Part shown: in pieces, positions 1 to 16,063 of the stretch | Layout of the letters: the number at the start of each line of letters is the position of its first letter | Position numbering within the stretch: the stretch's first letter is position 1 | From: a virus | Taxonomy: Duplodnaviria; Heunggongvirae; Uroviricota; Caudoviricetes | Virus record (IMG/VR): IMGVR_UViG_2609459830_000022 | Reading direction: 5' to 3' (one strand) | Length of the DNA: 16,063 nucleotides | Translations under genes and position numbers: made by a program | The notes under the pieces: generated by a model | What the model saw: only the letters and a program-made list of their open reading frames with translations | The model's database searches: none | Told to the model about the DNA's origin: nothing

Positions 1-1461
1 ATGAAAAAATTACTGCGTCTTTTTTTCCCGCTCTCACTGCGGGTACGTTTTCTGTTGGCAACGGCTGCGGTAGTACTGGTGCTTTCGCTTGCCTACGGAA
101 TGGTCGCGCTGATCGGTTATAGCGTCAGTTTCGATAAAACTACGTTTCGGCTGTTACGTGGCGAGAGCAATCTGTTCTATACCCTTGCGAAGTGGGAAAA
201 CAATAAGTTGCATGTCGAGTTACCCGAAAATATCGACAAGCAAAGCCCCACCATGACGCTAATTTATGATGAGAACGGGCAGCTTTTATGGGCGCAACGT
301 GACGTGCCCTGGCTGATGAAGATGATCCAGCCTGACTGGCTGAAATCGAATGGTTTTCATGAAATTGAAGCGGATGTTAACGATACCAGCCTCTTGCTGA
401 GTGGAGATCATTCGATACAGCAACAGTTGCAGGAAGTGCGGGAAGATGATGACGACGCGGAGATGACCCACTCGGTGGCAGTAAACGTCTACCCGGCAAC
501 ATCGCGGATGCCAAAATTAACCATTGTGGTGGTGGATACCATTCCGGTGGAGCTAAAAAGTTCCTATATGGTCTGGAGCTGGTTTATCTATGTGCTCTCA
601 GCCAATCTGCTGTTAGTGATCCCGCTGCTGTGGGTCGCCGCCTGGTGGAGTTTACGCCCCATCGAAGCCCTGGCAAAAGAAGTCCGCGAACTGGAAGAAC
701 ATAACCGCGAATTGCTCAATCCAGCCACAACGCGAGAACTGACCAGTCTGGTACGAAACCTGAACCGATTGTTAAAAAGTGAACGCGAACGTTACGACAA
801 ATACCGTACGACGCTCACCGACCTGACCCATAGTCTGAAAACGCCACTGGCGGTGCTGCAAAGTACGCTGCGTTCTCTGCGTAGTGAAAAGATGAGCGTC
901 AGTGATGCTGAGCCGGTAATGCTGGAGCAAATCAGCCGCATTTCACAGCAAATTGGCTACTACCTGCATCGTGCCAGTATGCGCGGCGGGACATTGCTCA
1001 GCCGCGAGCTGCATCCGGTCGCCCCACTGCTGGACAATCTCACCTCAGCGCTGAACAAAGTGTATCAACGCAAAGGGGTCAATATCTCTCTCGATATTTC
1101 GCCAGAGATCAGCTTTGTCGGTGAGCAGAACGATTTTGTCGAGGTGATGGGCAACGTGCTGGATAATGCCTGTAAATATTGCCTCGAGTTTGTCGAAATT
1201 TCTGCAAGGCAAACCGACGAGCATCTCTATATTGTGGTCGAGGATGATGGCCCCGGTATTCCATTAAGCAAGCGAGAGGTCATTTTCGACCGTGGTCAAC
1301 GGGTTGATACTTTACGCCCTGGGCAAGGTGTAGGGCTGGCGGTAGCCCGCGAAATCACCGAGCAATATGAGGGTAAAATCGTCGCCGGAGAGAGCATGCT
1401 GGGCGGTGCGCGGATGGAGGTGATTTTTGGTCGCCAGCATTCTGCGCCGAAAGATGAATAA
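1..1461 (+). CDS. phoQ: Sensor histidine kinase PhoQ (complete, 486 aa)
   Basis: Full-length ORF with ATG at 1 and TAA at 1459-1461. Two N-terminal hydrophobic segments flank a periplasmic domain with the acidic patch EDDDDAE, followed by HAMP, the H-box ([10 protein letters not shown]) and a C-terminal ATPase domain (DDGPGIP, GQGVGL). The sequence is recognised as enterobacterial PhoQ. Confidence 0.97.
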
Positions 1462-1583
1462 ATATGTCCTTTTATCACCACAGCAAGGCAACCCATTGAT
1501 TTAATTAAACAATCCACACTGCAAAAAGTGCTAAAAACAGCAGATTGACTACACTATTAACTACACCGTTCGGTGCACTGTAT

Positions 1584-1611
1584 GAAACAACGTGGAACAA
1601 ATAGACACAAG
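1584..1611. repeat. Phased TTGTT/AACAA repeat cluster, site A (3 units at 10-bp spacing, AACAA on plus strand)
   Basis: gaaacaacgtggaacaaatagacacaag. The reverse complement reads TTGTGTCTAT TTGTTCCACG TTGTTTC and is near-identical to site D (14521..14543). Confidence 0.6.
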
Positions 1612-2062: not shown

Positions 2063-2344
2063 TTACCGCCGTAACCGCTCCGGCTTCTTCCAGTGGTACG
2101 TGATTTTCTCCTTCTCCCGATACAGTTCAACGCGGCGATTGTAGGCCAGCATTTCCAGAACGCGGATCCGTATGTCGCGCATATCCGCATCATTAAGCTG
2201 GATACCATCACGGCGCATCACCTCAGCAACAACACGCGCATAATTTTCGGCTGTCACGCTGTCCGGCTGCGTGGTCTGTTCGTCAGCCTGCTGGCTGATT
2301 CCAGAGACGCGGCGGATTAATCGCAGTATTTCGGCTTCTGTCAT
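2063..2344 (-). CDS. Hypothetical protein (93 aa), last gene of the packaging operon
   Basis: ATG at 2344 preceded by GAGGT Shine-Dalgarno at 7 nt spacing, 14 nt downstream of the TerL stop. No recognisable motif. Confidence 0.5.
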   Translation of the reverse strand: MTEAEILRLIRRVSGISQQADEQTTQPDSVTAENYARVVAEVMRRDGIQLNDADMRDIRIRVLEMLAYNRRVELYREKEKITYHWKKPERLRR

Positions 2345-4359: not shown

Positions 4360-4399
4360 GCTTATTTTTTCGCCAGATTATTTTTCAAAAAATTCCCGT

Positions 4400-4480
4400 G
4401 CATAAAAATTTGAGGAGGCGTTCGGTTCCCGGCGGGGTCGGGTTTGTCCTGAAAACGCCCCCCACCCCGTCATACAGCCT
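4400..4480. other. Candidate cos / packaging-initiation region between HNH and TerS
   Basis: A 289-bp non-coding gap sits between the HNH stop (4649) and the TerS start (4359). It contains a G/C-rich segment (ccggcggggtcgggtttgtcct ... cgccccccaccccg) flanked by A/T-rich sequence. The HNH-cos-TerS-TerL arrangement is the standard layout in HK97-like cos phages. Confidence 0.4.
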
Positions 4481-4648
4481 CATCAGCGATTGCGGAAACA
4501 TTCCATAACCTCGCGGTCACGGTCGTTTAATCGCGTCGCTGTGATGCGTTCTGCGCGTCCTGATGCTTTATCTTTATGCCCTGTTTCCTGTGCCTTCCAT
4601 GCGTCACGCTGCCTTATCAGTCCACGGATAAGGCGGTTTTGTTCCCGC

Positions 4649-6929: not shown

Positions 6930-7502
6930 TCACACCCCCGCTAAATCCACCCACCAGCGGCGATTATCCGCACGCGGCATTTTTTCGGGGTGCTGCTCAT
7001 ACAGGGAACGGCGGGCCAGCTCCACGCCGGAATCGGGGTAAGCCGGTACCGATGTAACGGTAATTTCGTACAGTTCCGCCACCAGCACGGTGCGCACGCA
7101 TGGATCTGTTGTGGTATCCCATACATCCTTACGGGAGCGAAAGCCAAAGCTCATCCCCGAGATGTCCCCACGCTTAACCAGTTCGATAACGTCGCGCCCT
7201 GTACTGGTATCCGGTGGGGTCAGTTCAAAGCGTAACCCTGTTTCGTCCTCTTCCAGTTTCAGCGTGCCGGAACGGGTGCGCCCCAGTAACATGCTGTGGT
7301 CATGCTCATACAGGCCGCGAACGTCATTACCCGCCGCAAGCCACTCAGTAAACGCCCCCCGCTGGAATTTTTCGTAAAACTCCCCCCATAGCAGTTCTGA
7401 AAGCTTATCCCAGCGAACAACGTAGCCCGTCAGCGTACCGGCTCCGCTGGTAGTGATTTCCGATGACCGGATTTCCATACTCTTCATAATTTTTTCACCC
7501 AT
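6930..7502 (-). CDS. Prohead protease, HK97 family (S78); true start may be ATG 7487
   Basis: HDHSMLLGRT and GDISGMSFGF motifs characteristic of HK97 prohead protease. The first ATG (7502) lacks a Shine-Dalgarno; the second ATG (7487) has GGTGA upstream. Confidence 0.88.
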   Translation of the reverse strand: MGEKIMKSMEIRSSEITTSGAGTLTGYVVRWDKLSELLWGEFYEKFQRGAFTEWLAAGNDVRGLYEHDHSMLLGRTRSGTLKLEEDETGLRFELTPPDTSTGRDVIELVKRGDISGMSFGFRSRKDVWDTTTDPCVRTVLVAELYEITVTSVPAYPDSGVELARRSLYEQHPEKMPRADNRRWWVDLAGV

Positions 7503-7532
7503 AAAACACTAAAGGGGCTTTTAAGCCCCTTC
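7503..7532 (-). terminator. Intrinsic terminator-like hairpin between the major capsid and protease genes
   Basis: Minus-strand RNA reads AAGGGGCUU-AA-AAGCCCCUU (9-bp arms) followed by UAGUGUUUU, immediately after the capsid stop (7542-7544). Confidence 0.5.
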
Positions 7533-7541
7533 TGTATGCTG

Positions 7542-8699
7542 TTAATCGTCGTCCTGTGGCAGTTCCAGAATCTTGATCGCGTTCGAATCCACCACGCCAC
7601 CGCCTAAATATTTCTGCGTGAAAATTTTGATAAAGCCCGGCTCTGTCAGGTTGTCCGGTCTGGTGCGCACGCCCGTTTCATGATCAACGATGTAATAACC
7701 GCGTTTGAAGTCACCCAGGGCGATAACGTTATCCGGCATAAATTCCAGATACTCCACCGGAAGCCCCAGCAACGTATCAGGATCACCCGCCTGTAAACGG
7801 TCGCGCCAGATGTAATCGCCGTTCGCGTTCTTCACCTTCTGAAGTTTTGCCGCCGTCGTGGAGTTAACCACCCAGACCGCGTTTTTGCGGTATTTTTTAC
7901 GTAATGCAAATTTCAGGTCGATCAGCGGGTCCGCAGATGTCCACGCCAGAGATTCGGAAGGTTTAATTACCTGCAACGTACCAAAATCACGCTCTTTGTC
8001 GTTCTTCTCTGCACGGGGTACGGATAAAAAACCTTTTGCTTTTTTGTCACCGTCGCCCACAACCAGATCGCTTTCTTCGGTTTCCGTGAAGGTGTCGCCA
8101 ATCTCACCCGTCAGCCATGAAAGGATGTCCACATCGGAAAAATCCACGATTTCCTGTGTGGTGCGCGGGTACGCATAGACCGGATACAGCTTAATGCTCA
8201 CCTCGTTAATCTGCGGGGTGCTGGTCTGTTCGCGTGCCTTACCCTCTTCACCGTGGTTAACGGTCGCACCGCCAGCGGAAACAAGCTGCTTAAACTCGTT
8301 GCTGCTGATTTTCTTCACGGTACAGATGCGGCGCATGGTGGATTCATCCGTCAGCATTCGCATGATTTCGGTGTTCAGTTCAGGGATAACGGTATAACCA
8401 CCATCAGCGGGAACGCCTGTACTTAATGCGCGGGTTTCACCTGTCAGAATGTAGTTGCGGAGTTCTGCGGGGTCAGTGGTCTGACTGCTTTTACCTGGCT
8501 TGCTGCGCTCTTCGTCTGCAATGGCTTCAAGGCGGGAAATGTCTTTATCGAGGGATTCAGCTTTAGCGCGTAATTCGTCAAATTTTGCGCCCTCAGCATC
8601 GTTAAGACTGCGGTTTTCTTTTTCCGCGTTCTCCAGCATGTCGCGCATCTGATTTTTAATGGCGGTTTTCTGCTGGCGTAATTCGATTATTCTCGGCAT
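7542..8699 (-). CDS. Major capsid protein, HK97 fold, with N-terminal coiled-coil scaffold (delta) domain; 385 aa from ATG 8699
   Basis: N-terminal charged helical region (IIELRQQKTAIKNQMRDMLENAEKENRSLNDAEGAKFDELRAKAESLDKDISRLEAIADEE) followed by a typical HK97-like capsid body. The upstream extension to 8747 in the ORF track starts at GTG and runs through a hairpin, so ATG 8699 is preferred. Confidence 0.9.
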   Translation of the reverse strand: MPRIIELRQQKTAIKNQMRDMLENAEKENRSLNDAEGAKFDELRAKAESLDKDISRLEAIADEERSKPGKSSQTTDPAELRNYILTGETRALSTGVPADGGYTVIPELNTEIMRMLTDESTMRRICTVKKISSNEFKQLVSAGGATVNHGEEGKAREQTSTPQINEVSIKLYPVYAYPRTTQEIVDFSDVDILSWLTGEIGDTFTETEESDLVVGDGDKKAKGFLSVPRAEKNDKERDFGTLQVIKPSESLAWTSADPLIDLKFALRKKYRKNAVWVVNSTTAAKLQKVKNANGDYIWRDRLQAGDPDTLLGLPVEYLEFMPDNVIALGDFKRGYYIVDHETGVRTRPDNLTEPGFIKIFTQKYLGGGVVDSNAIKILELPQDDD

Positions 8700-8736
8700 A
8701 AAAAAAGTCCTGGGATTAAGTAAGGAACTCCAGGAC
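8700..8736 (-). promoter_or_regulatory. Stem-loop plus U7 immediately 5-prime of the capsid start codon; the stem contains the only AGGA Shine-Dalgarno-like motif
   Basis: Minus-strand RNA: GUCCUGG (16-nt loop) CCAGGAC UUUUUUU AUG. Stem arms at 8707-8713 and 8730-8736, T7 at 8700-8706. Confidence 0.5.
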
Positions 8737-8913
8737 GCGGCAAACACTCAACCGTTTTTCATAAGGAAATCAGCAATCGCACCGATCGTTTTCCCGCCTG
8801 GTAATGAATATTGGCGAGAACATTAACAGGCGGAAAAGTGGCCCCAGCGTCCTGGCACCACGGGCGAGAATAATCATGATTCAGTTCGGGTAAAATATGC
8901 CGATCCGCTCAGT

Positions 8914-8940
8914 GAACAACGTGGAACAACCACGAACAAA
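8914..8940. repeat. Phased TTGTT/AACAA repeat cluster, site B (3 units, AACAA on plus strand)
   Basis: gaacaacgtg gaacaaccac gaacaaa. The reverse complement TTGTTCGTGG TTGTTCCACG TTGTTC matches site C (14754..14803) at 24 of 25 positions. It lies about 215 bp upstream of the capsid start. Confidence 0.65.
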
Positions 8941-8950
8941 TAATTTACAA

Positions 8951-8980
8951 AACATGACAAAAAGCCGGATTGCTCCGGCT
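8951..8980 (-). terminator. Rho-independent terminator after the PerC-like gene
   Basis: Minus-strand RNA: AGCCGGA-GCAA-UCCGGCU followed by UUUUUGUCAUGUUUUG, beginning 7 nt after the TAA at 8987-8989. Confidence 0.7.
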
Positions 8981-8986
8981 GTGTGA

Positions 8987-9259
8987 TTATCTGTCCTGGT
9001 AATTTCGCCATATTTCATCACCAGCACCATCCATACCCATTTCGGCATAAGTGCGATCGACCGCCTTTTTCAGGTCTCCGTAATTATCCGGCGGCTCCGG
9101 TGGCCTCTGTGCCTTCCTGGAACATTCCAGCCGTCGCATCGTGATATGATGCCGTTCCTTGTCTGTCTCCACCAGTAGCATGACTTCACCCCATCGCGCC
9201 GCCGCCCTCCGGTAAAAGCCTTTCGCCTCGAGTTCTTCCGCTATGCGGTCATGTACCAT
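8987..9259 (-). CDS. Small regulator, PerC-family-like (90 aa)
   Basis: ATG at 9259 preceded by GAGGGGGGGA Shine-Dalgarno. The motif EAKGFYRRAAARWGEVM resembles the PerC/Pch family of small transcriptional activators; the assignment is from memory of the family motif, not a search. Confidence 0.45.
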   Translation of the reverse strand: MVHDRIAEELEAKGFYRRAAARWGEVMLLVETDKERHHITMRRLECSRKAQRPPEPPDNYGDLKKAVDRTYAEMGMDGAGDEIWRNYQDR

Positions 9260-9269
9260 CGTCCCCCCC

Positions 9270-9680
9270 TCAGAACGGAATATCATCACCGTAAGGGTCA
9301 TCGCCTCCCACTGGTGGCTGATTACCCTGTGTGCCAGTGGTCTTGCGTCGGCTCCCACCAGGACGTGCCGCCCGGGCACTGATTACGCTGTCTGCAATAA
9401 CCTGATAACCCTGCCGCGTTTCCCCGTTCTGTCCGGTCCACTGGCTGACCTGCATGTTACCCGCCACGGTCAGGAGTTCACCCTTGCGGTGCCTTGCCAG
9501 TGCTTCGGCCTGTCTGCCAAATGCCAGGTCGGATAACCACATCGTCGCCGTTCCGTCATCTGCCTGGCTGCACGGAAGGGGGACCGCCATACTCGCCATC
9601 GTCATTTGTGTACCCTTGCTGGTGGTCTTTAACTGCGGGTCAGCCACCAGCCGCCCGTAAGCTGCAATTTGTGCTGTCAT
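9270..9680 (-). CDS. ssb: Single-stranded DNA-binding protein (SSB-like), 136 aa
   Basis: OB-fold-like N-terminal region, Gly/Pro-rich linker and the acidic C-terminal tip DDIPF diagnostic of SSB. GAGGTGG Shine-Dalgarno before ATG 9680. Confidence 0.8.
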   Translation of the reverse strand: MTAQIAAYGRLVADPQLKTTSKGTQMTMASMAVPLPCSQADDGTATMWLSDLAFGRQAEALARHRKGELLTVAGNMQVSQWTGQNGETRQGYQVIADSVISARAARPGGSRRKTTGTQGNQPPVGGDDPYGDDIPF

Positions 9681-9689
9681 ATTGCCACC

Positions 9690-9995
9690 TCAGTGAAGCG
9701 ATCCGGCGTTATTCTTTTTCATCTCTTCCATCATTTTTTCAGTGAGCATTACGCACTGAAAACCCATGTTTTTGATGTCTACGGGCTTCATGCCTTTATC
9801 AGTGGATATCACAGGAAGAATATCCTGATACACATCGCGGTCAGGGTAACTAAGCACACAAAGCGCCCATGATGCCACGGGTGAGGATCCTTCGTCTGTT
9901 TCAACCCACCAGCCTGGTGTAGCTGCGCTTATTTGCAGAATCGTGATCAGTCCGTTGTGCTTGTAAAGTTTTTCACCAAATTTTGGTTCGCTCAT
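9690..9995 (-). CDS. Hypothetical protein (101 aa)
   Basis: ATG at 9995 with GAGAGGTGG Shine-Dalgarno and ATGA overlap with the upstream gene. No recognisable motif. Confidence 0.5.
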   Translation of the reverse strand: MSEPKFGEKLYKHNGLITILQISAATPGWWVETDEGSSPVASWALCVLSYPDRDVYQDILPVISTDKGMKPVDIKNMGFQCVMLTEKMMEEMKKNNAGSLH

Positions 9996-10243
9996 GATTC
10001 CACCTCTCCGGTTTTAACGTTGATGGTTGTTACCTGTTCCGCTTCGGCAATCTCCCGTTCTGTCAGCGTGGCAAAGTTTGCCGCCGCCGTGGTCATGAAT
10101 GCGCTTATCAGGTCGGGATGTTCCTTCGCGTATCCTTCCCGCGTGTGGCGGTCTATCGTTCTGATTGCCACCTTTAAGGTGTGCTCAGTCATGTCTAACG
10201 CTTTATATTTTGGCTCTGTTCTGTCTCTGCGTTTTTGGGTCAT
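9992..10243 (-). CDS. Hypothetical protein (83 aa from ATG 10243; ORF track extends to GTG 10273)
   Basis: ORF immediately downstream of the iteron region. Start choice is uncertain: ATG at 10243 and ATG at 10192 are both possible. Confidence 0.4.
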   Translation of the reverse strand: MTQKRRDRTEPKYKALDMTEHTLKVAIRTIDRHTREGYAKEHPDLISAFMTTAAANFATLTEREIAEAEQVTTINVKTGEVES

Positions 10244-10253
10244 TTCTCGCAAC

Positions 10254-10447
10254 CTCTCACTTTTTCGCCTCACTTTTTCAAGCGTCTCACTTCGTCGCAG
10301 CTGGGATTTTCGGTTTTTCTATGTGTGTGTTTCATAAGTATTTTTTTACCCCTCACTTTTGAGGATGTATACAGGTCGAAAAGTGAGGGAGAGCAGGCTA
10401 ATTTTGGCCCTCTTTCTATCCACCTCGCTTTTGCTCCTCACTTTTAT
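10254..10447. repeat. Iteron cluster, putative replication origin (7 copies of CTCACTTTT, one inverted, flanking an A/T-rich core)
   Basis: Copies at about 10256, 10269, 10286 (imperfect), 10352, 10379 (inverted), 10424 (imperfect) and 10437. The A/T-rich stretch is at 10300-10350. The cluster sits immediately 3-prime of the primase-helicase gene (stop 10444-10446). Confidence 0.7.
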
Positions 10448-11844
10448 AGCGGTGCTACATCATCCCCATCGATACGAATAACCCCATCTTTTTCCAGCTT
10501 GTACAGCCAGCGCCGGAAGTTTTTCATTTCATACCCCAGCTTTTTCATGTCATCACGTAACAGCGGGATCGTGCACTTGTCGCCGTTCTGTGTGCGTGAA
10601 CGGATGCACCCCCATAGCGCGGTATGGTTTTCCGTCTTGTTCCCTGCCTCCTCGATGCGCTCCAGTTCAACAGGAGGGCGCGGATCATCCACCACCACCA
10701 GCGACGTGATTAATTCACCGTCAGCGTCGGTAAAAAGCTCCACCACGCGTAAGTCATATGCGGCTTCTTTGAGTTCCTCCGCGTCCTTCATTTTGGTGCA
10801 TGAGATAACCAGCGCTTCGCTTCCTGCGTCCTCCCTGCGTATCCGGTATTCAGCATCCAGCGAAGCACGAAATGCACTGGAACCGCGCGCGCCTTTCGTC
10901 TCATCCTTGCCGGAATGGTGAACCACCAGCACCGTGGCCCCTGTGCGTCGTTTCAGTTCGTCACAACCACGGATAAACGCCCCCATATCACGGGAATCAT
11001 TTTCATCATTCCCACCAAAGCAACGCGCCAGCGTATCCAGAATAATCATGCGTACAGGTTTACCCGTTTCCCGCTCCACCTGACGGGCAGCGATAACCAT
11101 TTCATCAACATCAAGCGGGGCAGCCGGAAAGATGGGGCGGTTTACCAGATACAGATTTTTCACCTGCTCATCGTGCACAACCTCCCAGGCTTTTACACGA
11201 CGCGGAACACCTATACCGCCTTCACCGACCACATAGAGAACCGCACCATGTGCAACCCTGCGGCCTCCCCACTGGCGACCAGTGGCAACATGGCACGCCC
11301 ACGATCCGGCAAGGAATGATTTATAGGACCCGCTAGCCCCGTATATGCTGCATAGCGATACCGCCGGAATAATCCCCTTAACCACGTAATCCAGTTGCGT
11401 GTCGTATCCGGTAGATCCAACGCTCATCGGTAGCGTGGTTTTTCGCTGGTGGTTTTTTTCTTCCGCCGGCTCTTTCCCACGCACCCGTTCCAGGTATTCG
11501 CGCCAGTTCTCCCGCATATGGCTGTGCATCCCTTCGGGGTAATAATTCGCATCAGTTACACCCGCCGCCGCCAGCTTGTGCGCAATGGCATTAATATTTG
11601 ATGGCCTGATGTGGCCTGCCTTGTACAGCCGGACACAATAGCGCCCCTCGTCGATGATTCTCAGGTCTGCCAGTTCATCCAGTTGATCATCAGCCAGCAC
11701 AACGGGAGGCACATTATCGCCAGCCAGTCGCCCGTCCTGTTCCTGCCACTGTTTCGCATGTGCCCAGGCATCACTACCCGCAAAAATAATGACTTCGGTC
11801 ATCTTGTCGTAAGGCTGTTTTTTTAAGTTCGGTGCGCTTTTCAT
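10444..11844 (-). CDS. Replication initiator: Toprim-like N-domain + RecA-like (RepA/AAA_25-type) ATPase + C-terminal winged-helix; PICI pri-rep-like
   Basis: P-loop-like IYGASGSYKSF, RepA-like segment ILDTLARCFGGNDENDSRDMGAFIRGCDELKRRTGATVLVVHHSGKD, N-terminal VIIFAGSDAWAHA Toprim-like segment. Followed by the iterons. Confidence 0.78.
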   Translation of the reverse strand: MKSAPNLKKQPYDKMTEVIIFAGSDAWAHAKQWQEQDGRLAGDNVPPVVLADDQLDELADLRIIDEGRYCVRLYKAGHIRPSNINAIAHKLAAAGVTDANYYPEGMHSHMRENWREYLERVRGKEPAEEKNHQRKTTLPMSVGSTGYDTQLDYVVKGIIPAVSLCSIYGASGSYKSFLAGSWACHVATGRQWGGRRVAHGAVLYVVGEGGIGVPRRVKAWEVVHDEQVKNLYLVNRPIFPAAPLDVDEMVIAARQVERETGKPVRMIILDTLARCFGGNDENDSRDMGAFIRGCDELKRRTGATVLVVHHSGKDETKGARGSSAFRASLDAEYRIRREDAGSEALVISCTKMKDAEELKEAAYDLRVVELFTDADGELITSLVVVDDPRPPVELERIEEAGNKTENHTALWGCIRSRTQNGDKCTIPLLRDDMKKLGYEMKNFRRWLYKLEKDGVIRIDGDDVAPL

Positions 11845-12140
11845 TTCTTGCCCCTGAATCCGTTAACCATGGTTTTCAGCTTCTGGATGTTTGCCCGTGC
11901 CCTGGCGTTGCTGGTGGGCACGTTATGCGGCGCGGTCTGTACCAGAGAAAAATCACGCCGGAACTGATAAACAGGCATCACGCAATCATATTCGTAACCT
12001 TCACGGCGGTAAGTTACGCACCGTCCCGCCACGCCCTTAATCATTACCGTGCCGCCGTACTGGTCGCGGTAAATATCACCGCGCATAAATTTAGGGTGAG
12101 TGTTGCCACTGGCAGTTAAGCCAGAATATTTAAGTTTCAT
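11841..12140 (-). CDS. Hypothetical protein (99 aa), translationally coupled to the primase-helicase
   Basis: ATG at 12140; its stop overlaps the primase start (ATGA). Confidence 0.5.
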   Translation of the reverse strand: MKLKYSGLTASGNTHPKFMRGDIYRDQYGGTVMIKGVAGRCVTYRREGYEYDCVMPVYQFRRDFSLVQTAPHNVPTSNARARANIQKLKTMVNGFRGKK

Positions 12141-12380: not shown

Positions 12381-12602
12381 TTAATCCCCGTCCGTTGTTT
12401 TTCTTAAAACAGCTTCTGTCACGAAATCAGCATAGTTAGCGGCAATATCAAGAATATTTAGCCCTGTACCTCTGTGCTCATCAGTGCAAAGAAAGAAAAA
12501 AGCCACCCGCATAATTTCAGATATTGACGAAAGCGCATCAGCCGCATCATCAGGAACGCCGGAAAATTCTTGTTTCAGGGAATTAAAACGATCATCACGC
12601 AT
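12381..12602 (-). CDS. Small hypothetical protein (73 aa), paralog of the 77-aa and 80-aa neighbours
   Basis: ATG at 12602 immediately preceded by a G9 homopolymer on the coding strand (C9 at 12605-12613 on plus). Confidence 0.45.
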   Translation of the reverse strand: MRDDRFNSLKQEFSGVPDDAADALSSISEIMRVAFFFLCTDEHRGTGLNILDIAANYADFVTEAVLRKTTDGD

Positions 12603-12817
12603 AACCCCCCCCCATTTTCACAATCAGCAACAAGAATATTTTTAGCGTCATTCAGCGACCGCGTTGCGATGTATCGGATACATTCCAGGGCGAACGTTGT
12701 CCGGTCTTTCTGTTCTTCTCCCTGCGCAAGCTCTGCCGTGCATTCAATATCAATAAGCGCGTGCATCAGCGTAGTGAGCGCGGCGGCGGCTGCGTCCGGT
12801 GTGGTTTTATTGCACAT
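12575..12817 (-). CDS. Small hypothetical protein (80 aa from ATG 12817), third paralog
   Basis: ATG at 12817 preceded by a strong AGGAGG Shine-Dalgarno. Segment TPDAAAAALTTL resembles VPDDAADALSSI of the 73-aa gene. Its C-terminus (GGG) reads through the G9 tract. Confidence 0.4.
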   Translation of the reverse strand: MCNKTTPDAAAAALTTLMHALIDIECTAELAQGEEQKDRTTFALECIRYIATRSLNDAKNILVADCENGGGLCVMIVLIP

Positions 12818-12980
12818 GGCACACCTCCTGACGAATACGGGCGACAAAAATCAGATGTGCGTGCGGCAGCTGTGCACGTGCTTCGCGCTCAGTGGCAGCG
12901 GTAACGGTGAATATTGCAATACTGTCTGTCAGGCACTGCATAAAGCGCCAGACAAAATAAGGGCGTGTGAATACAGCCAT
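12807..12980 (-). CDS. Icd-like small protein (host cell-division-inhibitor-like), copy B, 57 aa
   Basis: ATG at 12980 with TAGGAGCC Shine-Dalgarno. Motif FVWRF ... TAATEREARAQLP ... LIFVARIRQ is shared with copy A. Family assignment is from memory of the conserved motif. Confidence 0.45.
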   Translation of the reverse strand: MAVFTRPYFVWRFMQCLTDSIAIFTVTAATEREARAQLPHAHLIFVARIRQEVCHVQ

Positions 12981-13266
12981 GTGAAAGGCTCCTACAGTAA
13001 TTTTAAGGAGTCTCGCTACTACGCTGTCAAACATGGTGGCGAGACGTAACAGGGTTGACAGACTGGCACTGTAGAGACCAGCGAGCGCAAAGGCTCCCCC
13101 GTTACGCCCCGCCATAATGCGGGTATGGGTAGGTTTACGGACACAAAAAAACCGCATATCGGAATGTAAGCGGCTGTCCGCTACAGTATTCAGGCTGTCA
13201 AACCCGGTCGCCATGTGGGCGACGGGGGAAGCATACAGCCCCGTGATAATTTTTTGCAAGCGGTTT

Positions 13267-13464
13267 TTACGCATGATGTGACCCCTGACGAATACGGGCG
13301 GCAAATACAGCAACACAACCTGACGGGCAACGGCTACGCGCTTCGCGTTCCGTCCAGGCGGTTACGTGGATGATTTGAGATTCTCCGGCACTCAGTGCCA
13401 GAAAACGCCACACAAAGGCCGTTTGTGTGTGTACAAGGTGTGGTATATGATTTACGGCAACCAT
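13267..13464 (-). CDS. Icd-like small protein, copy A, 65 aa
   Basis: ATG at 13464 with TAGGAGCC Shine-Dalgarno. Motif FVWRF ... TAWTEREARSRCP ... AVFAARIRQ. Confidence 0.5.
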   Translation of the reverse strand: MVAVNHIPHLVHTQTAFVWRFLALSAGESQIIHVTAWTEREARSRCPSGCVAVFAARIRQGSHHA

Positions 13465-13537
13465 AACGGCTCCTAGTTTACGTTGTTGGTTAGAAGCCCT
13501 GCGAGTGGTAATGACACTTGCGGGGCTTTGCTTTTTT
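13458..13537 (+). ncRNA. Candidate small cis-antisense RNA overlapping the start and Shine-Dalgarno of Icd-like copy A
   Basis: Plus-strand promoter-like TTGTGT (13423-13428), 17-nt spacer, TATGAT (13446-13451). Plus-strand-specific terminator at 13496-13537. No plus-strand ORF lies in between. Confidence 0.3.
13496..13537 (+). terminator. Rho-independent terminator, plus-strand specific
   Basis: 12-bp stem gccctgcgagtg / cacttgcggggc (two G-U wobbles on the plus RNA, which are C-A and U-C mismatches on the minus RNA), 7-nt loop, then TTTGCTTTTTT. Confidence 0.6.
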
Positions 13538-13553
13538 AAGTGCTCTTGTGTTA

Positions 13554-13600
13554 AGGTGACCACCTAACAATGGAAAGGCTAATTCAATAGGTGACCACTT
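13554..13600. promoter_or_regulatory. Two operator-like palindromes AGGTGACCACCT (13554-13565) and AGGTGACCACTT (13589-13600) in the divergent control region
   Basis: Inverted-repeat arms AGGTG/CACCT with centres 35 bp apart. The second overlaps the Shine-Dalgarno and TTG start of the RHH gene. A TTGACA hexamer on the minus strand (13605-13600) lies between them. Confidence 0.5.
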
Positions 13601-13790
13601 GTCAACAATCAAACGCGATAAAAGCCCTAAAGGGGACGGGCAATCCCCACAATTCAGAATGCGAATTTCTCCAGAGCTAAAAGAGCAATTCGACAAAGAA
13701 GCACAGAGCGACGGCATAAGCCTAGCCAACTGGCTTAAAGAGTTGGGGCGCACTGAACTAAAGCGGCGCGGCATAGAACCCAAAGGATAA
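13599..13790 (+). CDS. Arc/Mnt-like ribbon-helix-helix DNA-binding protein (63 aa, TTG start)
   Basis: SPQFRMRISPELKEQFDKEAQSDGISLANWLKELG matches the beta-strand / helix A / helix B pattern of P22 Arc (PQFNLRWPREVLDLVRKVAEENGRSVNSEIYQRV). Start must be upstream of the PQF strand; TTG at 13599 has AGGTGA 4 nt upstream. Confidence 0.55.
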   Translation: MSTIKRDKSPKGDGQSPQFRMRISPELKEQFDKEAQSDGISLANWLKELGRTELKRRGIEPKG

Positions 13791-13847
13791 AAACTATCAG
13801 CGCCGTGGTGTGAGGTATTACGGCGCATTGCTATGCAGGACAACACA

Positions 13848-14021
13848 ATGACCGATAAAGAATTGACCAAAACATTATCACCGGCACGGAAAAGACGGCG
13901 CAGAAAGATAGAGCATGAATCAGAAAGATTCGCGCCATGTGCTTTTGCCCTTGAGCAATTCCTTAAAGAGTATAGGGAAAAGCGCTCATTGCAGGTATGG
14001 CAACGAACTGAACCAGACTGA
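13848..14021 (+). CDS. Small basic hypothetical protein (57 aa from ATG 13848; ORF track starts at ATG 13833)
   Basis: ORF downstream of the RHH gene in the same plus-strand unit. AGGA 8 nt before ATG 13848. Arg/Lys-rich N-terminal half. No recognised family. Confidence 0.3.
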   Translation: MTDKELTKTLSPARKRRRRKIEHESERFAPCAFALEQFLKEYREKRSLQVWQRTEPD

Positions 14022-14115
14022 TTGCATTGCCCACCAGCCTGATAGCGGCTATCATCCCCGTGCTTATGTTTGGGATCACATACACATAAGGCGCAGCGGG
14101 TTATCTGTTCAGAAA

Positions 14116-14144
14116 GGCGGCTCCATTTCGGGGCCGCTTTTTTT
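14116..14144 (+). terminator. Rho-independent terminator closing the plus-strand RHH unit
   Basis: ggcggctcc-atttc-ggggccgc followed by T7. The stem has one G-U wobble on the plus RNA that is a mismatch on the minus RNA. Confidence 0.7.
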
Positions 14145-14290
14145 ATGCCTGAAAAACCCCAATTTTGTGGTTTTCCAGTCTCACCAGGGCGAACGAATCC
14201 CCGCCCACGTTCTGGCGTATATTCAATCTTCATGGTTATAGCTCTGTGTTCAGATGATTGATGTGTGGCGGCTGCGTGCCGCCAGCGTGA

Positions 14291-14543: not shown

Positions 14544-14753
14544 TAGAGTGATGAATGGCAAATATTGAGGATGTATGATTTACAGAAAATGAAACAGTAA
14601 GAATAAAATCTTTTAAATTCATGTTAATACAAAGGCATAAAATATTGTTTCATGCCTTTTTTCTCGCTCTTTAAAGAGTGATTCGCTAGTGTATAAAAAA
14701 CCAGTGACACATTAAAAATCAGCCACTTATAAATCTGTATGCTTTTTCGCCTC

Positions 14754-14803
14754 TTGTTCGTGGTTGTTCCACATTGTTGCTCATTGTTGCACGTTGTATC
14801 TGT
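14754..14803. repeat. Phased TTGTT repeat cluster, site C (5 tandem 10-bp units)
   Basis: TTGTTCGTGG TTGTTCCACA TTGTTGCTCA TTGTTGCACG TTGTATCTGT with exact 10-bp register, in the int-alpA intergenic region. Confidence 0.65.
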
Positions 14804-14812
14804 TCGCATATA

Positions 14813-14828
14813 CAGTATGCGCATACTG
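14813..14828. repeat. Perfect 16-bp palindrome cagtatgcgcatactg
   Basis: Read directly; located 18 nt downstream of the integrase stop and adjacent to repeat site C. Confidence 0.6.
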
Positions 14829-14845: not shown

Positions 14846-16063
14846 TTATTTTCTTCTGGCTACTGGTAGCGTGGTTACGTTTTCATGTGTTCCCGCCAGT
14901 ATCCCTAACCGCTCCGTCCACATATCCAGCGCATTGCGTTTAGCATCCAGATAACGGGAATGATTATAAACTCGCTGCATTCCTGGCATCTGGTGGCCTG
15001 TAAGCTGCTCCACGACATGCGGATCAACGCCTAAATCGTTCAGCATGGTTGTAAAGGTGCGCCGGATGTCATGCAGTGACCAGTGAGGATGATTAAGCCT
15101 CCTGTGCGCTAATCTTCCATACTGCGATACGCTGGCCTCCTGTTTCACTTCCCCCAGCAATAAGCCCGTGTGCCTGTTCTGCTCCACCAGCTGCGTGACG
15201 AACGGCAGGATCGCTTCCGGTATGGGCCGGAATATTGCGACCTTCGTTTTGCTGTGCTCCTTCGGAACGGTCCATAGCATTTCCGTAAAATCCCACTCCC
15301 CGATCTCCGATAACCTCAGTTCTACCGTTCTGGCTCCGAAGACAATCAGGAGGCGGATTAACGCGACGTAGTAAGGGGAGAATATTTTTTTGTCCAGTGC
15401 CTGCAATAATTCGCCAAGTTCTTTGTTACTTAAGACACGTTCGCTTATATCCGGTTTTTTCCCAACGTCCGCCACGTTCAGATCGTCCAGAACGTTGCTG
15501 ATTGCATAGCGCCGCCTACGGCAGAACTTAAGCGCCTGTTTGCACGCCTGTAGCACGAATCCGGCAGTAACAGGCGTTCGCTTTGCCACCTGGTCAAAAC
15601 AGGCCAGCCAGTGCCGTAGCTCGCATTTATCCAGCGGCATAGCACCAATCTGCTGTATTACGTGATTATTAAGTCGCCTTTTCAGGGCGATATAATCCAC
15701 GCGGTTTTCCTTTACGTAATACTCAAGCCAGTAGGTGAGCGCATCGCCAACCGTTACCGGCTTTAACGCTTCCTGTACGGTGTAATTAAGCTCATGACGT
15801 GGATTTTTCCCCTCTGCCAGCCATGCGCGACACTGGGCGGCTTTTTCCCTGGCTGATTTCAGGCTCAGATCAGGATAACTTCCCAGCTTAATGCGTTCGG
15901 GTCGTGTCTCCCTTCCCGTTCCGGCCCTGTATGTGAAATACCAGGTCAATTTCCCTGATGTTAAATATTTCACGCTCAGGTTTCCGCCATCACTATAAAA
16001 CGTGTTTTTCTCCGCTGGCTTACCATGAAGTTTCCTTAGCAAGGTATCGCTCAGTTTGTTCAT
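14846..16063 (-). CDS. int: Tyrosine recombinase / integrase, P4-type with N-terminal arm-DNA-binding domain (405 aa)
   Basis: N-terminal FYSDGGNLSVKY ... WYFTYR arm-binding-type domain. Catalytic region with GARTVELR, HDIRRTF and the HSRY tyrosine. ATG is the last 3 nt of the window (16061-16063). Confidence 0.93.
   Translation of the reverse strand: MNKLSDTLLRKLHGKPAEKNTFYSDGGNLSVKYLTSGKLTWYFTYRAGTGRETRPERIKLGSYPDLSLKSAREKAAQCRAWLAEGKNPRHELNYTVQEALKPVTVGDALTYWLEYYVKENRVDYIALKRRLNNHVIQQIGAMPLDKCELRHWLACFDQVAKRTPVTAGFVLQACKQALKFCRRRRYAISNVLDDLNVADVGKKPDISERVLSNKELGELLQALDKKIFSPYYVALIRLLIVFGARTVELRLSEIGEWDFTEMLWTVPKEHSKTKVAIFRPIPEAILPFVTQLVEQNRHTGLLLGEVKQEASVSQYGRLAHRRLNHPHWSLHDIRRTFTTMLNDLGVDPHVVEQLTGHQMPGMQRVYNHSRYLDAKRNALDMWTERLGILAGTHENVTTLPVARRK

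Follow-up and report, generated by a model that had tools for sequence, protein, structure and literature searches.

A single-stranded DNA-binding protein gene and a pchE ortholog encoded together upstream of the capsid operon of an Escherichia coli cf-PICI

The window analyzed here, the whole 16,063-nucleotide stretch of IMG/VR virus record IMGVR_UViG_2609459830_000022, opens with the E. coli sensor kinase gene phoQ. From approximately 1.5 kb to its end the window is a single island in which every gene on the list of open reading frames lies on the minus strand (Table 1). Within this island a gene for a single-stranded DNA-binding protein (ssb) and a gene for a small PerC-family regulator (pchE) stand side by side, and they are followed by an intrinsic terminator and by the packaging operon. 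Tail and lysis genes were found neither among the open reading frames of the island nor in the annotation of near-identical loci. In the best-matching complete E. coli genomes, 91-94% of the window aligns at 94-97% identity, and the same gene set lies between phoQ and roxA in those genomes. FORC_042 and Sakai have annotated capsid genes that share 99% identity with that of the window, and AlpA does not differ from its Sakai counterpart (100% identity) and matches that of CFT073 at 94%.

Table 1. Genes and sequence features of the window
Feature	Position	Strand	Basis
phoQ, E. coli sensor kinase gene	1-1461	+	
Site A, TTGTTC-type array near the phoQ-proximal island end	1575-1610	-	
Small ORF	2063-2344	-	
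TerL, TerS, HNH endonuclease	after the 2063-2344 ORF in window order	-	
Head-tail connector, head closure protein, portal, HK97 protease	between HNH and capsid gene	-	
HK97-type major capsid gene, gene 1 of the packaging operon	7542-8699	-	ORF list
Site B, TTGTTC-N4-TTGTTC-N4-TTGTTC, between pchE terminator and capsid gene	8914-8939	-	zero mismatches
Intrinsic terminator after pchE	8953-8980	-	stem 8963-8980, T run 8953-8962; terminator scan
pchE ortholog, 90-aa PerC-family regulator	8987-9259	-	Pfam PF06069; identity to Sakai PchE
ssb, 136 aa	9270-9680	-	Pfam SSB; PHROG 44; SSB structure matches; Sakai ECs_1587
orf101, function unassigned	9690-9995	-	ORF list; PHROG 27268, E=2e-68
orf83, ECs_1586 homolog	9992-10243	-	PHROG 1231; residues 11-93 of a longer GTG-started ORF
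Intergenic region 3' of repA, AAAGTGAGG-type repeats	10256-10445		repeat families D6/D17 and sequence
RepA-type helicase, DUF4222 protein, further small ORFs	between the small ORFs 5' of ssb and alpA	-	
alpA, 62 aa	14291-14479	-	Pfam Phage_AlpA, 61.8 bits
Site C, at least 5 TTGTTC-type repeats with 10-bp period, between int stop and alpA	14744-14799	+	
Tyrosine integrase	14846-16063	-	

[quoted passage not shown] The genes by which such an element is recognized are all present in the island: int, alpA and rep, and a packaging set of its own that comprises HK97-type capsid, protease, portal, head-tail adaptor or connector, HNH endonuclease, TerS and TerL. Judged by this gene content, what follows E. 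coli phoQ in the window is a cf-PICI of the EcCIEDL933/OI-51/CP-933C/Sp7 type that has integrated between phoQ and roxA. EcCIEDL933 also goes by the names O-island 51, CP-933C and Sakai prophage Sp7. Helper-phage-dependent induction and transfer via phage tails only were demonstrated experimentally for EcCIEDL933 alone. It has also been reported that cf-PICIs produce tail-less capsids spontaneously without a helper phage (10.1101/2025.02.11.637232), and the regions flanking the packaging module have been described as variable accessory regions.

The product of ssb matches the Pfam SSB family (PF00436) over residues 5-99 with 52.9 bits against a cutoff of 26. It also matches PHROG 44, 'single strand DNA binding protein' (E=3.6e-36), and 23 solved SSB structures (best E 1.6e-12); its score against TIGR00621 (53.4) falls marginally under the cutoff of 53.95. 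The protein consists of an OB fold, a short linker of approximately 30 residues and a GDDIPF tip, and its C-terminus, ...DDPYGDDIPF, thereby carries the acidic protein-interaction tip of SSB proteins. It shares the OB-fold single-stranded DNA-binding domain with E. coli Ssb, and its DDIPF tip is identical to that of the host SSB. In a by-eye reading of the sequences, W54, F60 and W88 of E. coli SSB align with W48, F54 and W81. The island protein differs from bacterial SSBs in being merely 136 amino acids long, with its linker of only about 30 residues. It is 81% identical to ECs_1587 of Sakai, the tip of which reads GDGIPF. We infer that the island SSB would coat single-stranded DNA arising in island replication, and that its tip may engage host proteins that normally dock on the host SSB.

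The mechanically generated list of open reading frames starts the neighboring gene at GTG 9379. We place the start of pchE at ATG 9259 because the GAGGGGGG ribosome-binding site, the RefSeq annotation of relatives and a Pfam alignment beginning at residue 1 all agree on it. This leaves 10 nt, with the ribosome-binding site, between the ssb stop and the pchE start. The protein matched the PerC family (PF06069) with 148.3 bits against a cutoff of 22.6 (E=7.6e-44), its residues 1-89 aligning with profile positions 1-89 of 90. It contains the family core A-E-x-L-E-x-K-G-x-Y-R-R-A-A-x-R-W in a protein of approximately 90 residues, a core that is also found in distant representatives. FYRRAAARW occupies residues 15-23, and in an alignment of 23 relatives the columns G14, Y16, R17, R18, A19, A21, R22 and W23 are invariant. 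The protein is 98% identical to that of FORC_042 and 90% identical to PchE (ECs_1588) of O157:H7 Sakai. This identity, the gene order ssb-pchE-terminator-capsid and the flanking phoQ place it in the PchE orthologous group (group 3 Pch). EPEC PerC, encoded on the pEAF plasmid, and EHEC PchA, PchB and PchC (group 1) share with it both PF06069 and the N-terminal core LE-KG-YRRAA-RW, and all are small horizontally transferred regulators. The family as a whole is small: out of 1.84 billion, 98 cluster representatives matched at E<=1e-3. Complete phage genomes seldom carry it (5 of 50,697 records), and it is commoner on plasmids (203 records). The plasmid-borne members, among them EPEC PerC, are only approximately 44% identical to the window protein.

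The AlphaFold model of the PerC-family protein is all-helical (pLDDT 82). Its N-terminal module is predicted with pLDDT >90 as three TPR-like helices, a match that is generic for a small helical protein. No DNA-binding fold or motif was recognizable in this model, and a sequence search of solved structures with PerC returned just chance-level matches, to the PACSIN F-BAR domain. The ANR family profile (NCBIfam NF033650) aligned with residues 7-52 at 20.2 bits against a cutoff of 32 (E=3.9e-4), a resemblance and not membership. Taken together, these results favor PchE acting through protein or nucleoprotein complexes over sequence-specific activation.

Directly upstream of ssb lies orf101, the stop of which falls 9 nt before the ssb start. 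This gene is present in FORC_042 and absent from Sakai Sp7. The next gene upstream, orf83, is 90% identical to its Sakai homolog ECs_1586. In O157:H7 the pchE mRNA was mapped by Andreozzi and Uhlich, using 5' RACE and RNA-seq, as a polycistronic ECs1586-ECs1587 (ssb)-pchE transcript that starts 10 nt upstream of ECs1586, just downstream of rep (PMC7369912). In the window the neighboring genes of this stretch either overlap or stand 9-10 nt apart, so that the corresponding unit would run orf83-orf101-ssb-pchE-terminator. The repeat-containing region 3' of repA is likely to be the Rep-specific origin and the promoter region of the pchE transcript as well. The equivalent regions differ with the type of Rep, with TAACCCGCA repeats in Sakai and GTCTACC repeats in CFT073. 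A consensus scan of positions 8500-10500 found no sigma-70-like site. A manually chosen promoter candidate 3' of site B (TTGTTC, 16 nt, TATTTT) is not conserved in a related cf-PICI inserted in yifB (L013), and no promoter is claimed.

The terminator reads AGCCGGA-GCAA-TCCGGCT at 8980-8963, a 7-bp G+C-rich stem with a GCAA loop, followed by TTTTTGTCATGTTTT. Its predicted fold of -14.2 kcal/mol is well below that of shuffled sequences (z=-2.95). It is kept in both FORC_042 and Sakai, and in Sakai it is duplicated around an inserted gene, ECs_1589. The capsid ATG at 8699 lies approximately 290 nt downstream of the PerC stop. Because the terminator stands between pchE and the capsid operon, the operon needs its own promoter or antitermination. 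An earlier note on this DNA, made from the letters alone, had called the SSB from its DDIPF tip, had likened the YRRAAARW motif of its neighbor to PerC activators, and had placed the pair just upstream of the capsid operon with a clean terminator at its end. The 52.9-bit Pfam match and the tip bear out the SSB call. YRRAAARW proves to be part of the invariant family core, and the note's guess, against which it would have counted the lack of a PerC family hit, is matched by a profile score of 148 bits. The location holds as well, on the minus strand and about 290 nt from the capsid ATG, and the terminator is real, with its stem at 8963-8980, its T run and a z of -2.95.

The closest named counterpart of the locus is that of Sp7. 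Its PchE is equal in length to the window protein and 90% identical over 89 of 90 residues, the nine substitutions falling mostly in the C-terminal third, and it has the same neighbors, with ssb upstream, a terminator and the capsid operon downstream, and the roxA-phoQ insertion site. The two islands differ in that Sakai encodes a 710-aa primase whereas the window encodes a RepA-type helicase, in the extra 101-aa open reading frame upstream of ssb in the window, and in ECs_1589, which is inserted between pchE and the capsid gene in Sakai and missing from the window. The same pair is also carried by EcCICFT073, a classical PICI whose PerC is approximately 85% identical.

The literature and existing annotation already cover the ssb-pchE pair, the families of its products, the transcription unit and the host-directed phenotypes. 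A description of the two genes appeared in 2012, the prior work being credited to Flockhart et al., and RefSeq labels the products 'single-stranded DNA-binding protein' and 'PerC family transcriptional regulator'. The basal expression of pchE is constitutive and steady, and SOS or prophage-inducing treatment lowers it more than 6-fold (PMC6265319). Over-expressed PchE acts as a repressor of csgD, curli, biofilm formation, eae and lpfA1 and as a strong activator of flhDC, fliC and motility (PMC6265319, PMC7369912). Most of these host phenotypes come from plasmid over-expression, and deletion of pchE led to a slight change in Congo-red binding. PchE was not required for ler or espA expression. 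As far as the citing statements in PMC11773190 and PMC6265319 go, the PerC-like proteins of EcCIEDL933 (OI-51-type) and EcCICFT073 do not activate LEE1. Group 1 Pch proteins, in contrast, activate LEE1/ler by relieving H-NS silencing (PMC4764244), and the two groups have opposite effects on adhesion. Silencing by StpA and Hha, along with that by H-NS, is relieved by group 1 Pch without a recognizable DNA-binding domain, and PchA and its group 1 relatives associate with AT-rich DNA in ChIP. Another small PICI-borne member of the family, EcCIMP1_025 of PICI EcCIMP1, is approximately 40% identical to the window protein according to PMC11773190. It represses LEE1, and its authors proposed an ANR-like action. 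Like the window protein, it gives an ANR match below the threshold. Through PchE-type regulators, the carriage of a phage satellite by pathogenic E. coli is connected with curli, biofilm, motility and adhesion. The finding of the ssb-pchE pair in itself adds little and mainly provides context; the TTGTTC arrays described below are the more useful lead and offer, at the capsid promoter, a concrete candidate for an operator of AlpA (or Int).

Of 5426 complete E. coli genomes, 1643 gave matches to a 1.5-kb probe spanning the pair, and in 82 of these the match extends over most of its length. A taxonomic survey of species-representative genomes, which is a sample, returned at least eight further PerC loci, and those among the matches listed are in E. 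albertii, E. ruysiae, Pantoea (two), Chimaeribacter, Lonsdalea, Erwinia and Buttiauxella. In all eight of these listed loci perC lies 7-9 kb downstream of a co-oriented integrase gene, and in six an AlpA homolog is detectable. The gene directly before perC is a primase or rep gene, ssb or one other open reading frame; ssb adjoins perC in two of the eight listed loci and is therefore an optional neighbor. The 3' side of perC is occupied in the listed loci by lipoprotein-like cargo and an unrelated late zone, and a capsid module of the window type was found in none of the eight. Across these gene orders, PerC is a near-core gene that appears to end the replication zone of Gram-negative PICI-like satellites, whatever late genes come next. 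One could go further and suppose that the ancestral job of the family lay inside the satellites, as a constitutive co-activator or anti-silencer that licenses a basal, helper-independent late (capsid) operon, with PerC and PchABC as later exaptations. We consider this improbable; its basis is the position of perC in elements of Escherichia, Pantoea, Erwinia, Lonsdalea, Chimaeribacter and Buttiauxella. If PchE did also control the capsid operon, this would explain both the helper-free tail-less capsids of cf-PICIs and the presence of a 'virulence regulator' family as a near-core satellite gene in non-pathogens.

The leader of the capsid operon holds site B, one of a set of TTGTTC arrays that share a 10-bp period. 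With up to three mismatches allowed, the window contains five overlapping matches to the pattern, against 0.01 expected by chance, and these fall at sites A, B and C. Sakai and FORC_042 have a fourth array, site D, which falls just beyond the edge of the window, in the stretch from the int start to the far end of the island. Judged by position, attP in the excised circle would have site A on one side and site D on the other, a recombination-type layout. Site B is kept in Sakai, FORC_042 and two further cf-PICIs. One of these is L013, the element in yifB, whose Int, AlpA, PerC and capsid are 88%, 90%, 61% and 62% identical to those of the window and which keeps sites A, B, C and D. The rest of the L013 leader, from site B to the capsid ATG, can no longer be recognized as related, and the persistence of site B therefore points to selection. 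EcCICFT073 (Int 91% and AlpA 94% identical) has sites A, C and D and no array between perC and the packaging genes. TTGTTC arrays were found in none of the eight listed distant PerC satellites, in which Int is 25-29%, AlpA (where detected) 31-40% and PerC 41-58% identical to the window proteins.

The second of these cf-PICIs, L012, is helper-embedded inside the terL of a prophage, and its Int is 41% identical to that of the window. It has a doubled motif, GTGTATTGC, at both ends, a type of end motif that matches the description for its integrase clade, and of the TTGTTC arrays it retains site B alone. Hardly anything distinguishes its late region from that of L013, and by this comparison the locus looks like a recent module swap or recombinant. 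Reading L012 as a natural swap experiment was for this reason given up: with a late region so close to that of L013, its retention of site B says little about selection.

Two other functions for the arrays were considered and set aside. They resemble the P4 iteron, TGTTCACC, and could thus have been P4-like origin iterons (ori/crr). However, three islands with three different Reps each have their own repeats 3' of rep while the arrays are unchanged, and the E. ruysiae element (L005) shares the Rep N-terminal domain yet has no TTGTTC arrays. A cos function for site B was set aside on position, since cos in HK97-type modules usually lies in the HNH-TerS gap (4360-4648). The distribution indicates that the motif tracks the int-alpA module and not the type of PerC or Rep, as far as sequence comparison can tell. 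AlpA is the published master activator of Gram-negative PICIs, it activates its own promoter, and its over-expression alone induces the PICI cycle (PMC6092414). Relatives of AlpA also act as recombination directionality factors. The promoter region of alpA holds site C. Most simply, all four arrays would be bound by AlpA or, with lower likelihood, by the arm-binding domain of Int, and site B would then be a candidate AlpA switch for the capsid operon. The map of the arrays is a reusable product in its own right, a candidate AlpA/Int operator set with one member at the capsid promoter.

On balance, we think it rather probable that ssb and the pchE ortholog end the replication zone of a cf-PICI, that PchE is directed at the host, and that the capsid operon is controlled via site B, for which AlpA is the best candidate. 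PchE would probably influence host regulons in trans, through an effect on nucleoid-protein or regulator complexes, and is probably not a sequence-specific activator of the island's capsid operon. Precedents for such an action have been shown for PchA with H-NS and for ANR proteins. The capsid operon is more likely to be switched on via site B by a protein that recognizes the same arrays around int and att, most plausibly AlpA. The earlier note had left two roles open for the PerC-like protein, as a cross-regulator of host genes and as the late activator of the capsid operon at site B. The first gains support from the published over-expression of its 90%-identical ortholog PchE, with csgD and curli down and flhDC and fliC up. 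The second is disfavored, as the motif follows the Int/AlpA type and EcCICFT073 has a PerC without a site B.

A different purpose for PchE, which we regard as unlikely, is that of an ANR-type anti-activator that inhibits a host or helper-phage regulator, or H-NS, purely by protein-protein contact and serves the satellite and not host virulence. The weak ANR profile match over residues 7-52, the confidently predicted (pLDDT >90) TPR-like three-helix N-terminal module, LEE1 repression by the EcCIMP1 PerC-like protein with its proposed ANR-like action, and the conserved position of PerC across many satellites of non-pathogenic Enterobacterales are all consistent with it. However, the 20.2-bit score lies under the curated cutoff of 32, and this proposal overlaps with host-directed action in trans instead of excluding it. 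A possible benefit to the satellite would be the tuning of helper or host gene expression for superinfection or maintenance.

That PchE should be a late activator or anti-silencer of the cf-PICI capsid operon, acting at or near site B just downstream of its own terminator, is decidedly improbable. Its gene does lie immediately upstream of that operon, site B is strongly conserved despite divergence in the remaining leader, and PerC is accompanied by site B in each of the five cf-PICIs examined, including L012, which keeps the two without the type-1 int/alpA module. Moreover, constitutive pchE would fit helper-free production of tail-less capsids, and group 1 Pch proteins activate promoters and associate with DNA. 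However, the same TTGTTC motif flanks int and both att ends in a recombination-type layout, and EcCICFT073, with its approximately 85% identical PerC and its sites A, C and D, lacks site B. The eight listed PerC-bearing satellites with other integrases have no TTGTTC arrays, and in L012 the att-arm motif changed with Int (41%) whereas PerC stayed. Furthermore, pchE expression falls under prophage-inducing conditions, AlpA alone induces the PICI cycle, and the PchE model is without a DNA-binding fold. Finally, it is scarcely credible that the pair is without host regulatory significance, with ssb as a replication accessory and pchE as drifting hot-spot cargo whose effects arise only on artificial over-expression: although the regions before and after the packaging module are variable and accessory, an extra gene was inserted here in Sakai and most phenotypes were seen with plasmid-borne expression, the 23 relatives share an invariant family core, the position of the gene is kept across genera, pchE is steadily transcribed and its deletion slightly alters Congo-red binding.

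The repeat family lying immediately 3' of the rep gene differs from island to island among the window, Sakai and CFT073, and it switches with the type of Rep protein, which is a RepA helicase in one case and two different primases in the others. Each such region probably serves as the origin specific to its own Rep; the promoter that has been mapped for pchE falls within the region concerned. Over about its first 125 residues, the RepA-type helicase was 54-67% identical to the N-termini of primase-type Reps that differ from it elsewhere, namely those of Sakai, CFT073, E. albertii and E. ruysiae. The identity suggests that the N-terminal part is a shared, swappable domain.

Mosaicism was also seen within the pchE transcription unit. 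A 101-aa ORF, for which Pfam gave no match, lies between the ECs1586 homolog and ssb in the window; FORC_042, a near-identical E. coli relative, has it, but Sakai and CFT073 lack it, and its presence or absence marks another mosaic indel inside the unit. In Sakai Sp7 an extra gene of 74 aa, ECs_1589, separates pchE from the capsid operon, with one copy of the same terminator hairpin on each side of it; both the window and FORC_042 lack this gene. ECs_1589 is a moron-like insertion. Further along the window's island, the DUF4222 protein is a homolog (79% identity) of RgdR (ECs1581), the OI-51 protein published as regulating LEE/T3S and motility. This island thus encodes two small host-directed regulators, one RgdR-like and one PchE-like.

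Between alpA and the replication genes, a C4 antisense RNA and its a1/b1 target element were detected, together constituting an RNA immunity module of the P1/P4 type. Several long mechanical ORFs overlap this module and may not be real genes.

Four TTGTTC repeat arrays with a 10-bp period were identified: two flank the att ends, one occupies the int-alpA gap in inverted orientation, and one is upstream of the capsid gene. The arrays are conserved together with the type-1 Int/AlpA module, and satellites with other integrases were without them. They are a candidate operator set for AlpA or for the Int arm. Adjoining the array next to int (site C), just 3' of the int stop codon, is a perfect 16-bp palindrome, CAGTATGCGCATACTG, which may serve as an operator or else as a weak terminator. 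The cf-PICI of E. coli 181.1 interrupts the gene for the large terminase in a resident prophage and is thus helper-embedded. It encodes SSB and PerC, its HK97 capsid module is divergent, its integrase is a different one (41% identical), and it has two AlpA-like genes. At both ends of this element a doubled GTGTATTGC motif stands in place of the TTGTTC arrays.

In PerC-bearing satellites of Pantoea, Erwinia, Lonsdalea and Chimaeribacter, three copies of GTTCAGTT form an array of 9-bp period in the gap that separates the primase stop codon from the start of perC; three of the five loci also have an inverted copy of the array at the element's far end. The array may act as an origin or an operator, or may correspond to a crr-like element.

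Coordinates of the features in the window and related elements
Feature	Element	Position (strand)	Remark
C4 antisense RNA	window	13032-13119(-)	Rfam, 69.1 bits
a1/b1 target element	window	13187-13236(-)	Rfam, 46.8 bits
Overlapping ORFs	window	12575-14233	
TTGTTC arrays	window	1575-1610(-), 8914-8939(-), 14744-14799(+)	
TTGTTC arrays	Sakai Sp7 (L002)	1293-1338, 2678-2723, 8946-8971, 16531-16566	
Repeats 3' of rep	window	10256-10445	AAAGTGAGG-type
Repeats 3' of rep	Sakai (L002)	~7240-7600	TAACCCGCA
Repeats 3' of rep	CFT073 (L003)	~7500-7800	GTCTACC/GGTAGA
RepA-type helicase	window	10444-11844(-)	N-terminal part, residues 1-125
DUF4222 protein	window	11841-12140(-)	
101-aa ORF	window	9690-9995(-)	PHROG 27268
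ECs_1589 region	Sakai Sp7 (L002)	8537-8940	versus window 8962-8990
Palindrome	window	14813-14828	
GTTCAGTT array	L006-L010	9855-9878	
Inverted GTTCAGTT array	L006	18897-18922	
Inverted GTTCAGTT array	L007	18706-18728	
Inverted GTTCAGTT array	L008	15822-15846	
Helper-embedded cf-PICI	E. coli 181.1 (L012)	NZ_CP059907.1 3743289-3763337
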